Assembly: GCA_035221665.1 (NCBI GenBank)
Contig: CM069140.1
Coordinates: 28,024,001 to 28,088,000, forward strand
Direction: 5' to 3'
DNA from: Okamejei kenojei
Lineage: Eukaryota
DNA: 64,000 nt
Below the pieces are notes generated by a model, which saw only the letters and a list, made by a program, of their open reading frames with translations, searched no databases and was not told where the DNA came from. Position 1 is the stretch's first letter. Each line of letters begins with the position of its first letter. The position numbers and the translations under genes are program-made. This document shows, one piece after another, positions 920 to 9,061 of this stretch.

Positions 920-1703
920 ATGGCACAGACCCTACAGCTGGAGATTGCCAACTTTGGGAACACTTTGCTGGAGTGCCTGAATGAACAACGATTGCAGGGC
1001 CTCTACTGTGACACCTCCATCATAGTGAAGGGGCAGACGTTCAAGGCCCACCGGGCCGTGCTGGCCGCGAACAGCTCCTATTTTCGGGACCTCTTTGCTG
1101 GGACTGCGCGGGCAGCCTTTGAACTACCGGCAGCTGTGCAGCCACAGAGCTTCCAGAACATTCTCAACTTCTGCTACACGGGCCGATTGTGTATGAAGGC
1201 AGGCGAGCAGTTCATGCTGATGTACACGGCGGGATTCCTGCAGATCCAACGTATTGTTGAGAGGGGCACTGAGCTCCTGTCCAAGGTCAGCTCCCCCAGG
1301 TGTGACTCCCAGGGCCTCAGCGCGGAAGAGCCTGGCTGGGAGCCTCAGAGCTCCGCCCCGCCACTCCCCCTGCCCCTTGCTCTGCCTCTCCCGTCCCGTG
1401 TCAAAGTGGAGCAGAGCGACTTGGGCTGTGGCCGGGGCAGGCGGGCCGCCGAGGGTTCCATGGCAAGCAGTGCCAAGTTGGCCCGCCTGGCACACGAAGG
1501 AGGGAATGGGCAAGGCTGCCCTGCCAATGCTCCACGGGACATTGCCAGCCCTGGAGCCAGCAGCCTTCACCCCAGCGACAGCCCCTTCTCCTGTCAGAAC
1601 GAAGAGGAGGAGGAGGGGGATGAGGAGGGGCTGGAGGACATGACGGAAGAGCAGTATGTCCAGATGTGTAGCATGTACAACATCATGAGCGTCCCACATG
1701 GAG
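920..1703 (+). CDS. NACC1-like: NACC-family (BTB/POZ + BEN) transcriptional repressor, coding exon 1: BTB domain and acidic linker
   Basis: Acceptor tttctttcctttaaag ends at 896. ATG at 920 in Kozak context (caccATGg). [31 protein letters not shown]...[10 protein letters not shown] matches the NAC1/NAC2 BTB domain. Donor G|gtaaac at 1704, phase 1. Confidence 0.95.
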
Positions 1704-2214
1704 GTAAACTAACCGGTCAAAGTGACATTAACTAGTCCCGGCCTCATGTTGAAGAATGCTCCTGTCCCTTGTGAAGGGCTGTTGTGGTGGCACTGCACAA
1801 TGTGGAGGATTGATAGAGGAGTGGTATACTGATAGAGCGACGCATCATTCAAAGGGCAGCACTGAGGCAATGCTGCATTATCAGGAGGGCTGATCTTTGG
1901 GAATGCTTCCCGACTGTGCTGTGGGACAGCTGTTGTGTTAGTGGTTATAATAAGTGAGATCTGTACTGACAGAGGAGTCATCTTTTAGATTTGACACAAA
2001 GGGTTAACCGAGGCAGGGTTGCCCCTCTTGGATGTATGGGAAAGATCATGAGTCATTATCTAGAAAAGTATAATGAGTGTGCTCTTAAATGTTTGGTCAA
2101 GATTTGCATGCCTAATAGTACACAATTTGTACCAAGCAGCGTCCCTTATATTTGGCTCTAAATTATAACATTTGATATTGAAGAAAGCTATGTTACAAAG
2201 CAAGGTATGTAAAT

Positions 2215-2740
2215 TATCTGCCCACAGATCTAGAGTGGAAAGTTTTCATCTATGCCTCTTAGAATGTTATGTATTTCTATAATGTTTCCCCTCAGGCCCC
2301 GAAGCTCCAAAGATAACAATCCAAGTTTGACCAACCTCCCCTTTTAGCTGATACTGTGCAGCATTCTGGTAAACCTCTTCTGCATCCTCTCCAATACCTT
2401 CACATCCTTCCTGTAATGGAGCCACCAGAAATGCACACAATACTCCAAATGTGGCCTAACCAAAGTCTTATGGAGCTGCGAACATGACGTTCTGATTCTT
2501 ATACTCGATGTCCTGACTGATGAAGGCAAGCATGCCATATGTTGCCTTTACCACTCCATCTACTTGTGTATTCACCTTCGGGGAGCTATGGACTTGGACC
2601 CCAAGCTCACGGTGAACATCAGTGCTGTTAAGGGTCTTGCCATTAATTATATACTTTCCCTGCGCATTCAACCTCCCAAAGTGCAACAGTTCACACTTTA
2701 TTGGATTAAATTGTCTCTGCCCATTTCTGTAGCTGATCCA
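2215..2740 (-). mobile_element. CR1 LINE ORF2 (RT C-terminal) fragment
   Basis: KTLVRPHLEYCVHFW...DVKVLERMQKRFTRML and RELGVQVHSS motifs, frameshifted. Confidence 0.85.
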
Positions 2741-2929
2741 AACCGTGCTCTAAACCACAGGGGTGGGGTGAATGGATAAGGATGAGTGAACTTGGTGGTA
2801 TGGGATTTTGGAATTGCCATCGTAAGCCATGATGCAAATAGTCAGGATACTTTCCACAGACCATCCGTAGTAGTTTGTTAGATTCATTGATGGCACACCA
2901 AATCTCAAAAAACATAATAGAGGCACTGG

Positions 2930-3250
2930 CATGCCTTTTATGATTACATCTCTATGCTGGCCCACGACAGGTCATCCAAGATGTTCATGCCCATGAATTT
3001 GAAGCTACTAACTCCCTCAACTGCCAACACAAATAAAACCTGGCGCTGACCTCAATACTTCCCTTTTCTGAAGTCAACAATTAATTCTTTGGTCTTGTTG
3101 ATGTTGAGCAAGAAGTTGTTGTTGTGGCAATCCCCGGGTGATTTATCTCTCTCCCTGACTCTGGCTCATCACCGCATTGATTAGGCCAACGACAGTAGAG
3201 TCCACAACACATGTATAGATGGCAGTAGACCTGTGCTCACACTTGAGAGA
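2930..3250 (-). mobile_element. Rex/Babar- or L2-type LINE RT fragment
   Basis: Minus strand encodes the LNINKTKELIVDFRK-type motif; similar to 58080-58270 on +. Confidence 0.7.
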
Positions 3251-5954: not shown

Positions 5955-7100
5955 TCAAAGGTAGGAGTTTCTCTACTAACATAGGCAACTCTTTCTCCTC
6001 CCCAGCTAGCCTCTGCTGCGGGGTTCCACAAGGTTCCATCCTTGGCCCCATTCTCTTCTCCCTGTATATGCTCCCCTTAGGCCAAGTAATTCAAAGGCAT
6101 GCCATTTCCTTCTATTGCTATGCAAACGATACACAACTCTATCTCCCCCTGAAGCCCAAAAACCGATCAAATCTACTTCACCTTATCCACTGCCTCGAGG
6201 ATATAAAGTGTTGGATGTCCCAGAACTTCTTCCAACTAAATGAGAGTAAGTCTGAGGTCATCCTTCTCGGTTCCTCGGACTCAATCAAAATGATAGCAGG
6301 CAGCCTTGGAAGCCTTGCCCCACTACTCAAACCTCGTGTCAAAATATCTTGGTGTGATATTTGACTCAGCATTGAAATTTGACAAACAAGTCAATGCCGT
6401 GGTAAACGCTAGCTTCTTTCAGCTTCGGAGAATAGCTAAAATAAAACAATTCCTCCAGTTTGATTACCTCGAAAAGATCATTCACACATTTATCTCCTCC
6501 CACCTCGAATACTGCAACTCCCTTTACACTGGCATCAGCTAATCTTCCCTGTCCCGCCTGCAACTGGTCCAAACCGCCGCAGCGAGACTCCTGACGGGCA
6601 CCCGAAAAAGGGAGCACATCACCCCGATTCTGACCTCTCTCCACAGCCTCCCTGTGCGGTTCCGAATAAATGTCAAGATCCTTCTTTTTGTTTACAAAGC
6701 CCTTAACGGGCTTGCCCCCACCTACATCAAAAGTCTGCTTACCCACCACACCACCTCCAGGTCCCTCAGATCGGCCGACTTGGGGTTACTGAACATCCCG
6801 CGGTCTAGGCACAAGCTCAGGGGCGACCGCGCCTTTGTGGTTGCAGCTCCTAGACTGTGGAACAGCATCCTTCTTCCCCTCAGAACTGCCCCCTCCATCG
6901 ACTCCTTTAAGTCGAGACAACTCATCTTTACTCTCAAGCCTTTCTTGACGTCCTCTGAGGGAGGTCTATATGTATGTATTTATGTATGTACTTAATCTAT
7001 GAACCAATGTTGTATAACGTTAGTACCTCCACCAAAATAAAGCACTTTGGCCAACGAGAGTTGTTTTTTAAATGTGCTATAGAAATAAAAGTGACTTGAC
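5955..7100 (+). mobile_element. L2-clade LINE, 5'-truncated (RT plus 3' tail)
   Basis: GVPQGSILGPILFSLYMLPLG...YANDTQLY, GDRAFVVAAPRLWNS; ends aataaaagtgacttgact. Confidence 0.9.
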
Positions 7101-8330
7101 TATCCTTGCCCTGAGTTCATCAGCCTTGTCCATCAGGCCTTTAGTCTTGAAATAAATTCATTTTAATCCAACCATCTTTCCTATGACATGCTCCTGTCTA
7201 TCATGTCTACTTAACTAGCTGTATTTGCCTTTGTACTGCCTTCTACCTGCCTCACCACTGCTTTGGATCTGGTCCCCCTGCCAATCTAGTTTAACCCACC
7301 TCACTAGCATTAGCAAACACCCTCTAGTTCAGTATAGTCTGTCCCTCTTGTACAGGTCACCTCTACCCCAGAAGAGATCCCAGTGGTCCAAAAATCTGAA
7401 TCCCTGCCACCTGCACCAAATACTCATCATCTTCCAATTCCTATCTTCAAGCATGTGGCACCGCATGTAATCAGGAGATTTCTCTCCTTGAAGTTTAGAT
7501 TTTTAATCTTTTGCCAAATTCCTTATATTCACCATGCAGGACCTCATCTATTTATCCTACCTATGCCATTTGTGCCAATGTGCGCAATGACATTTGCTTT
7601 CTCACCCTCTACCTTGATACCCTTGAATCTCCTCTCTCATTGAGAATGCGTTAATGGTGTGATTGAAAATGTTCTGCAGCTACTCTGAGACATCCTGGAC
7701 TCTTGCACGAGGGAGGCAATATACCATCCTGGAGTACTGTTTCCTGCCAGAGAATCTCCTGTCTTTCCTGTAACTAATGAGTCTCCTATCTCTTTTGCCC
7801 TATCAGACTTACCCATACCTGTTGTGCCTCAGTGCCACAGCCGTGACTGCTGATGCGGTTGCTCTCCTCTCCAAATAGTATCCAGAAGGGTAATCTTGTT
7901 CCAAGGATAATGGTCACAGTGCACTCTCCGCCTACTTCCTTTCCTGGTGCTCACCCATCTACTCTCTGCCAGTTGCTTAGCTGTGACCACCTCACTATAA
8001 CTCCTATTTATGAAGCCTTCAGTCTCCCAGACAATCCTGAGGTCGTCCAATTTGTTACACTTCCCACAGGTGTAGACCTCAAGGGCCCTGACTTCCCACC
8101 TCCAGCAAGAGGAACCTACCAGTGCCCTAACTACCATTCTGACTGCACTCAGACCAAAGAAGAGTTACAAAAAAAGGCCTTGCCTTAACTTGCCATCACT
8201 TTCCACTCAGTCATCTCACCTCAACAATTACACAGTACTTAGCCTCAGAGCACAGCTTCCTTATAAACAATCTCTCCCTAAATGGCTGTTCCCAATTGGC
8301 CGCTCTGCGTATCCAAACTCTCTGCACAAC
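7100..8330 (-). mobile_element. Degenerate CR1 5' region (ORF1-like)
   Basis: YTCGKC motif; similar to other decayed CR1 ORF1 copies at 17540-18000 and 61300-61700. Confidence 0.6.
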
Positions 8331-8765
8331 TGAAATTCTCCTGAAAAATCTCCTTTGCACCATCTCTAGTGCATTGACTTCTTAGTGTGTGGTGACCAGA
8401 GCTGCAGAGGGTATTCCAGTTGTGGCTAATCCAGTGCTTTACAAAGTGTTCCATGCAAAAGTGTCACAGAGTAATACAGCACAGAATGAAAGATAAAGAG
8501 CAATCATCATTTATGGTCTCCTAAATGATTGTTTCACTGGAGGCTTGCCATGCTGCCAAAGTGCTTCAAACTGGGCTCAATTTATCCCTTAACTGAATCC
8601 TAAACCAATTTAGTCTTTGGTCAGCATTGTGAAAAATGGACCGTCTAGTCATTATAACATTGCTGCCTGTGAGTTCTTGCATTAGAGCATCCATCACCTT
8701 CAAAACACATTTCACTGTTTGTTGGTTATGAAAGAGACAAATGTTTCTTCATCCTTCTCTTGCAG

Positions 8766-9061
8766 TTTACTGTCAGAATTTTGCTCCGAACTTCAAGGAG
8801 AGTGAGATGAATGCCATCGCTGCAGACATGTGCACCAATGCTCGAAGGGTGGTCCGCAAGCACTGGATCCCCAAGCTCAAGCTGATGCTGGCTGATGGAG
8901 ATGGCGTCTATCGCTCGGTCATCACTGACGTGGCCGGTGGGGGCCTGCCAGATGGAGCTTCTGGGAACCAGGACATGGAGCTGGCAGGCACTGGCCACAG
9001 GCATGAAGCCAGTGGGATGCGGGGCACTGGCACTCATAGATACGAGACGGGTTTCCCCTGA
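8766..9061 (+). CDS. NACC1-like: NACC-family gene, last coding exon: end of BEN domain and C-tail
   Basis: Acceptor ccttctcttgcag. Encodes [41 protein letters not shown] at 9059-9061. Spliced CDS is 784+174+106+98+296 = 1458 nt (485 aa) with the frame intact. Confidence 0.95.

Follow-up and report, generated by a model that had tools for sequence, protein, structure and literature searches.

A spliced BTB-BEN gene beside XPR1 in the skate Okamejei kenojei is likely a third NACC ohnologue kept by cartilaginous fishes

The window analysed here, a stretch of 64,000 nucleotides on chromosome C10 of the skate Okamejei kenojei (assembly GCA_035221665.1, contig CM069140.1, positions 28,024,001 to 28,088,000), carries on its plus strand a NACC-type gene encoding a BTB/POZ and a BEN domain (C10 28.03 Mb), hereafter NACC3. 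Unless a chromosome is given, positions are those of the window. In the assembly, the coding parts of NACC3 (920-1703, 3481-3654, 3958-4063, 5292-5389 and 8766-9061) are separated by introns that are all GT-AG and amount to 485 codons. Coding exon 1 (897..1703, +; ATG at 920) encodes the BTB/POZ domain (PF00651, 8.8e-26), a linker and an acidic stretch, and is followed by exon 2 (3481..3654, +) with a pre-BEN segment, exon 3 (3958..4063, +) with the BEN start and the equivalents of R400/R401, and exon 4 (5292..5389, +) with the BEN alpha3-alpha4 loop and its NACC3-specific SSLCDP motif. Exon 5 (8766..9107, +) encodes the BEN recognition helix alpha5 and the C-terminal tail up to the true stop, a TAA at 9105-9107, beyond which lies a 3′ untranslated region with a minimum extent of 9108..10500 (+), contigs of runs X6 and X10 extending 1.2-2.4 kb beyond. 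Four sequencing runs were aligned to the gene. All four introns are spliced in contigs of X6, X7 and X10, which come from two studies (joints 1701>3479 and 3651>3955 were seen in three of the four runs), and the introns are unspliced in the fourth, X1, which is a DNA run; that X6, X7 and X10 are RNA was deduced from the splice joints and not from the run records. The NACC3 locus is a real, spliced and transcribed gene.

The TGA that ends the assembly's reading frame (9059-9061) is created by a one-base insertion in a run of C (9055..9061, +). The base is missing at 9055 in X6, X7 and X10 and at 9059 in X1. As all four runs lack it, the TGA is very likely an assembly error, and the consensus likely went wrong at a C/T variant. 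The corrected frame runs for 15 further residues to the TAA, yielding a protein of 500 amino acids; the little-skate NACC3 protein is also 500 residues long and identical to the window protein at 473 of 485 positions. A sequence-only reading of this DNA had described a complete, frame-intact BTB-BEN gene of 485 residues convergent with XPR1: the gene, its place and its neighbour were borne out, and the length holds for the assembly but not for the protein. XPR1 lies to the right of NACC3 on the minus strand, tail-to-tail with it. The last four coding exons fall within the window (32937..45212, approximate boundaries), two of the three minus-strand open reading frames tested matched the EXS profile, the last coding exon lies near 32940, and the ATG is at C10:28,271,116, approximately 183 kb past the window end.

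RNA-like contigs begin to align at position 896 and carry 122 extra bases from elsewhere; given the AG acceptor that stands ahead of exon 1, a non-coding exon is therefore expected upstream of the window. A donor-flanked segment of 116 bases beside a CpG island, 9.3 kb before the window (C10:28,014,607-28,014,722), is a candidate for this first exon. It matches the end of a long contig of another organism, and its link to NACC3, drawn from runs aligned to the upstream 10 kb, is putative. The adjoining 445 bases are covered by separate RNA-like contigs, possibly of a neighbouring or divergent transcript.

A search of the genome for BTB domains gave 10 matches, including three NACC-type loci, and a search with the BEN-helix exon gave exactly three, in the window, on C36 and on C33. 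The C36 copy is NACC1 (90-100% identical per exon to Amblyraja NACC1), the C33 copy is NACC2 (with aligned exons each 82-98% identical to Mobula NACC2), and intron positions are identical in all three genes. No fourth NACC copy was found among the best candidates in the genome, which alone were scored. Because all of its introns are shared with the other NACC genes, a retrocopy origin of NACC3 was ruled out. In NACC1 of this genome, a run of T in the BTB exon contains one extra base (C36:5,318,205-5,318,230), probably an assembly error too, and several conserved residues of the last exon differ from those in Amblyraja NACC1.

The relationships of the three genes were reconstructed with FastTree on 121 rows (the 120 best of 820 matches plus the window protein) and with IQ-TREE (LG+C20+F+G4) on 45 proteins hand-picked from 442 and rooted on lamprey and two hagfishes. 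Both methods recovered the same three groups, with IQ-TREE supports of 100/99 for NACC1, 100/99 for NACC2 and 100/98 for NACC3, and 100/95 for a sister grouping of NACC1 and NACC3 in the 45-protein tree. The NACC1 clade unites shark and bony-vertebrate sequences and leaves NACC3 outside (100/99); NACC3 falls inside neither the NACC1 nor the NACC2 clade. Approximately unbiased (AU) tests on a 23-row subset rejected both the joining of NACC3 to chondrichthyan NACC1 alone (p=0.003) and its joining to NACC2 (p=0.022). Since the NACC1 clade holds both shark and bony sequences, the split between NACC1 and NACC3 is older than the divergence of the two lineages; with three cyclostome rows as root, the tree and AU tests date the NACC3 duplication between the branching of the cyclostome outgroup and the parting of sharks from bony vertebrates. 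Simple translocation of NACC1 or NACC2 was ruled out, both genes having loci of their own (C36 and C33) and NACC3 a clade of its own.

The neighbourhoods of the three genes belong to one paralogous block. On C10 the order is CEP350-NACC3><XPR1-KIAA1614-STX6-IER5 (>< marks a convergent pair), with CEP350 as left neighbour (27.86-27.98 Mb, −; match to PDB 2COZ, 1e-34) and, to the right, a KIAA1614-family gene (28.36 Mb, +), an STX6/10-family gene (28.43 Mb, −) and an IER gene (28.44 Mb, +). STX6 and IER5, expected to the left of the window by the sequence-only reading, thus lie approximately 400 kb to the right. A CACNA1-type IQ exon (26.98 Mb) and a QSOX gene (35.1 Mb) are found further along C10. 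On C36 the order is NACC1-STX10-IER2-CACNA1, with the same relative orientation as in NACC3-STX-IER, and on C33 it is XPR-like><NACC2-LHX3-QSOX2, with NACC2, the LHX3-like gene and QSOX all within 0.3 Mb. The paralogue names STX6, IER5, CACNA1E and LHX3/4 are those we take to apply, and they agree with the little-skate labels.

A query of the genome with an XPR1 exon gave two matches, the second of which is on the other strand from NACC2, 22 kb beyond its stop codon. It belongs to an XPR1-like gene (C33:20,023,597-20,067,800, +) that is convergent with NACC2, in which 11 XPR1 exons match in order at 52-88% identity; the aligned parts are free of stops, and the gene is apparently intact. We take it to be, likely, an XPR ohnologue that is presumably absent from humans. 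No XPR1 exon matched in the 60 kb around NACC1. NACC2 and NACC3 each have an XPR gene as their convergent neighbour, so NACC and XPR were copied together as one pair. This second XPR gene, the separate clade and the two AU tests uphold the proposal of the sequence-only reading that NACC3 is a third copy left by whole-genome duplication; the gene nests in neither sister clade, separate NACC1 and NACC2 loci with shared intron positions are present, and the synteny goes beyond what that reading had guessed. The XPR, STX6/10, IER, CACNA1, QSOX, LHX3/4 and LMX1 families are all spread over C10, C33 and C36. The last of these is represented by three LIM genes that we take to be of LMX1 type, one per NACC chromosome (C36 13.03-13.09, C10 29.40-29.57 and C33 6.01-6.21 Mb), which adds to the traces of this paralogon.

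Other features of these chromosomes were noted. The LIM1 and LIM2 exons of an LHX4-like gene on C10 (6.26 and 6.52 Mb) are both on the minus strand, in reversed order and 256 kb apart, possibly through misassembly or rearrangement. On C30, two single-exon BTB zinc-finger genes in tandem (9.43 and 9.46 Mb) resemble a pair on C33 and may mark a fourth segment of the paralogon, where no NACC was found. An ACBP profile search found four loci in the genome, none of them on C10, and ACBD6 was not located; an SPX family search gave no match even at the known XPR1. Neither search is informative. Introns and intergenic parts of the window contain decayed repeats (5915-7100, 35608-36006, 37499-38448 and 39658-40440) which, from motifs, we take to be LINE reverse-transcriptase, Tc1-like transposase and Penelope-like fragments.

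At the protein level, both the BTB and the BEN domain (PF10523) of the little-skate NACC3 orthologue score above the Pfam cut-offs, and the best solved-structure matches of NACC3 are the human NACC1 BEN domain (3.5e-85) and the NAC1 BTB domain (7e-58); at 76-86% identity, the solved NACC1 domains settle the fold. NACC1 (NAC1/BTBD14B/BEND8; PDB 3GA1, 4U2N, 7BV9, 8YZS) shares with NACC3 the BTB-BEN layout, five coding exons, the intron positions and the orientation relative to STX6/10 and IER genes, with 94/124 (BTB) and 121/140 (BEN) residues identical between a primate NACC1 and NACC3; it differs in clade, in chromosome, in having TN or SN in the loop where NACC3 has SSLCDP, and in its C-terminal tail. 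NACC2 (RBB/BTBD14A/BEND9) likewise has the same architecture, introns and, in this genome, tail-to-tail XPR gene, but only 113/140 BEN residues are identical to those of NACC3, sister status is rejected (p=0.022), the loop reads TS, the tail is longer, and a lysine occupies the R472 position (in one protein, Callorhinchus NACC2). The residues that had been taken for a mosaic of NACC1 and NACC2 features proved to be shared ancestral ones, SIVVKGQ and FELP being found in shark and skate NACC1 as well; a mosaic or gene-conversion origin was rejected, the residues being mostly common to shark NACC1.

The accessible text of the NACC1 crystal-structure report lists 13 DNA-contacting residues (PMC11472053), and 13/13 are kept in the window protein and in all 21 NACC3 proteins checked. 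According to the part consulted of a further study, NACC1 and NACC2 both select ACATGT (PMC8887127). With all contact residues kept, NACC3 therefore likely binds CATG sites as NACC1 does. By analogy with its relatives, it is predicted to dimerise through the BTB domain, which would also recruit co-repressors, and to bind CATG in the major groove through helix alpha5 of the BEN domain, whose alpha3-alpha4 loop would touch the minor groove. In that loop, beside the minor-groove contacts, Leu-Cys is present in 31 of the 33 fetched NACC3 proteins with an SSLCDP-type motif, LR in the other two (Stegostoma rows), and TN, TS or SN in the remaining 273 proteins. Among elasmobranchs, the BTB and BEN domains of NACC3 are conserved about as well as those of NACC1, which argues for a working gene.

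The distribution of NACC3 was drawn from protein searches that listed the best 120 of 820, 120 of 153, 150 of 4948 and 120 of 992 matches. From candidates pre-limited by shared words and length, 473 proteins were fetched, and the 404 that reach 50% identity to a NACC reference fell into 247 NACC1, 117 NACC2 and 40 NACC3. Thirty-eight of the 40 NACC3 proteins belong to sharks, batoids and Callorhinchus, 22 species in all, the other two being skate-like, and all three paralogues were seen in at least eight species among the matches listed. Judging from these sequences, NACC3 is common to sharks, rays and chimaeras. Among the matches listed, none of the 40 NACC3-class proteins is from a named bony vertebrate; the collection includes NACC1 from bichir, reedfish, sturgeon, paddlefish, alligator gar and lungfish, with no NACC3 from them. 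NACC3 was thus likely lost across bony vertebrates. Its absence from humans, which had been anticipated, agrees with the accessible part of a survey in which NACC1 and NACC2 are the only NACCs among nine human BEN proteins (PMC11472053). Databases name NACC3 NACC1-like, and one whale-shark fragment NACC2-like, just the mislabelling that had been foreseen.

We consider it highly probable that the window holds a spliced BTB-BEN gene with a clade of its own, likely the whole-genome-duplication sister of NACC1, kept by cartilaginous fishes and probably lost in bony vertebrates, with a product predicted to bind CATG as a dimer and to co-regulate transcription. Several points weigh against this. Apart from CEP350 and the Pfam families, the neighbour names are presumptive, with the little-skate labels in their support, and none of the three IER proteins turned up in a search for exact matches; microsynteny is partly scrambled, with the QSOX1-like gene 7 Mb and the LHX4-like gene 22 Mb away on C10. 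Callorhinchus NACC3 sits on a long branch (0.44), as does the lamprey, the root rests on only three cyclostome rows, and the choice between NACC1 and NACC2 as sister carries only p=0.022. Finally, the loss in bony vertebrates is drawn only from listings of protein databases (the best 120-150 of 153-4948 matches).

This last point touches the most durable alternative, namely that some bony vertebrates (coelacanth, gar or bichir, for example) still carry the same ohnologue in a form that has diverged or escaped annotation, loss being only partial. The searches show best matches only, and no protein named for coelacanth or spotted gar was seen among the matches listed; moreover, the consulted part of the little-skate paper counts 17 ohnologues retained by chondrichthyans and the coelacanth, along with 24 in chondrichthyans and ray-finned fishes, next to 19 in chondrichthyans only (PMC10115646). 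Against this, bony NACC1 proteins were collected, yet a NACC3-focused search (best 120 of 153) falls from 147 bits for Callorhinchus NACC3 straight to NACC1 at 127 bits or less, and we regard partial loss as unlikely. Far less probable is a NACC1 copy, duplicated or transposed in chondrichthyans alone and inserted beside XPR1, which would account for the sister relationship, the NACC1-like database name and a BEN domain slightly nearer NACC1 (120/140) than NACC2 (113/140), but not for a NACC1 clade that joins shark and bony sequences and leaves NACC3 out (100/99; AU p=0.003) nor for the same tail-to-tail XPR neighbour at NACC2, which random insertion would not yield, while the introns common to NACC3 and NACC1 exclude a retrocopy. 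That the early stop is genuine and NACC3 is decaying into a pseudogene in this skate is scarcely credible, for the assembly frameshift, although it stands 15 codons ahead of the conserved stop, is missing from all four runs and has a counterpart in NACC1 of the same assembly, while NACC3 is spliced in three runs from two studies and matches ray or shark NACC3 at 121/124 (BTB) and 135-136/140 (BEN) residues.

Under the whole-genome-duplication origin of NACC3, a single ancestral NACC would have stood tail-to-tail with XPR in a QSOX/LHX-NACC-STX-IER-CACNA1 block. A first genome doubling would have separated NACC2 from NACC1/3, and a second NACC3, on the alpha segment (the chicken-8/human-1q25 equivalent), from NACC1 on the beta segment. 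Skates would have kept both NACC-XPR pairs, whereas the human block with XPR1 has no NACC and the human NACC2 block presumably no XPR. The little-skate paper is relevant here. In the part accessible, LER10 is listed in its segment table as 1-alpha, LER39 as 1-beta and LER31 as 2-alpha; a gene labelled 'Nacc1' lies on Leri_10C (41.29 Mb) near Xpr1-2 (41.06) and Ier5-1 (40.92), with Stx10, Trmt1 and Nfix on Leri_39C and Ier5l on Leri_31C (PMC10115646). Segments 1-alpha, 1-beta and 2-alpha for NACC3, NACC1 and NACC2 match the tree (NACC3,NACC1),NACC2. The label Xpr1-2 on the C10-type gene implies a second Xpr1 copy in little skate too. In the same source, 'Nacc1' LE10501 differs in expression between the anterior and the posterior pectoral fin (log2 fold change -1.57, adjusted p 0.0096, among ~6,900 rows; the direction of the sign is unchecked), and from its label and an id close to that of Kiaa1614 we infer it to be the Leri_10C gene, i.e. 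NACC3.

NACC3 follows the evolutionary pattern of the ohnologues that chondrichthyans retained and bony fishes lost in that paper (wnt6b and a cspg5 copy among 19 cases), with the difference that here the alpha copy would be the one lost and the beta copy, NACC1, the survivor, opposite to the usual bias (PMC10115646). Its main text and readable supplement do not name NACC as a chondrichthyan-only ohnologue; the list of 19 may include it. The main text of a whale shark paper has no NACC, and in a literature search without most subscription papers no publication was found that names a third NACC or a second vertebrate XPR ohnologue. A bolder account would make NACC3 an unnamed transcription factor, 450 million years old, that disappeared at the root of bony vertebrates whereas the sister gene on the beta segment persisted; the invariant Leu-Cys of its minor-groove loop would give another flank preference or a cysteine-based regulation, the protein would help to pattern the skate pectoral fin, and the second XPR beside NACC2 would be what reciprocally remained of that block. 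As a whole, this account is in our view doubtful.

NACC3 is a real, expressed and apparently unnamed third NACC ohnologue, of a family and through a type of event that are already known, and it reveals no new mechanism. It corrects an orthology, in that the expression data recorded for little-skate 'Nacc1' are likely those of another gene. It also provides a clean case of reciprocal loss after genome doubling, with NACC-XPR pairs whole in skates and one partner gone from each human block, and an exception to the preferential loss of beta copies. By implication, the ancestor of jawed vertebrates would have had three NACC dimer partners.

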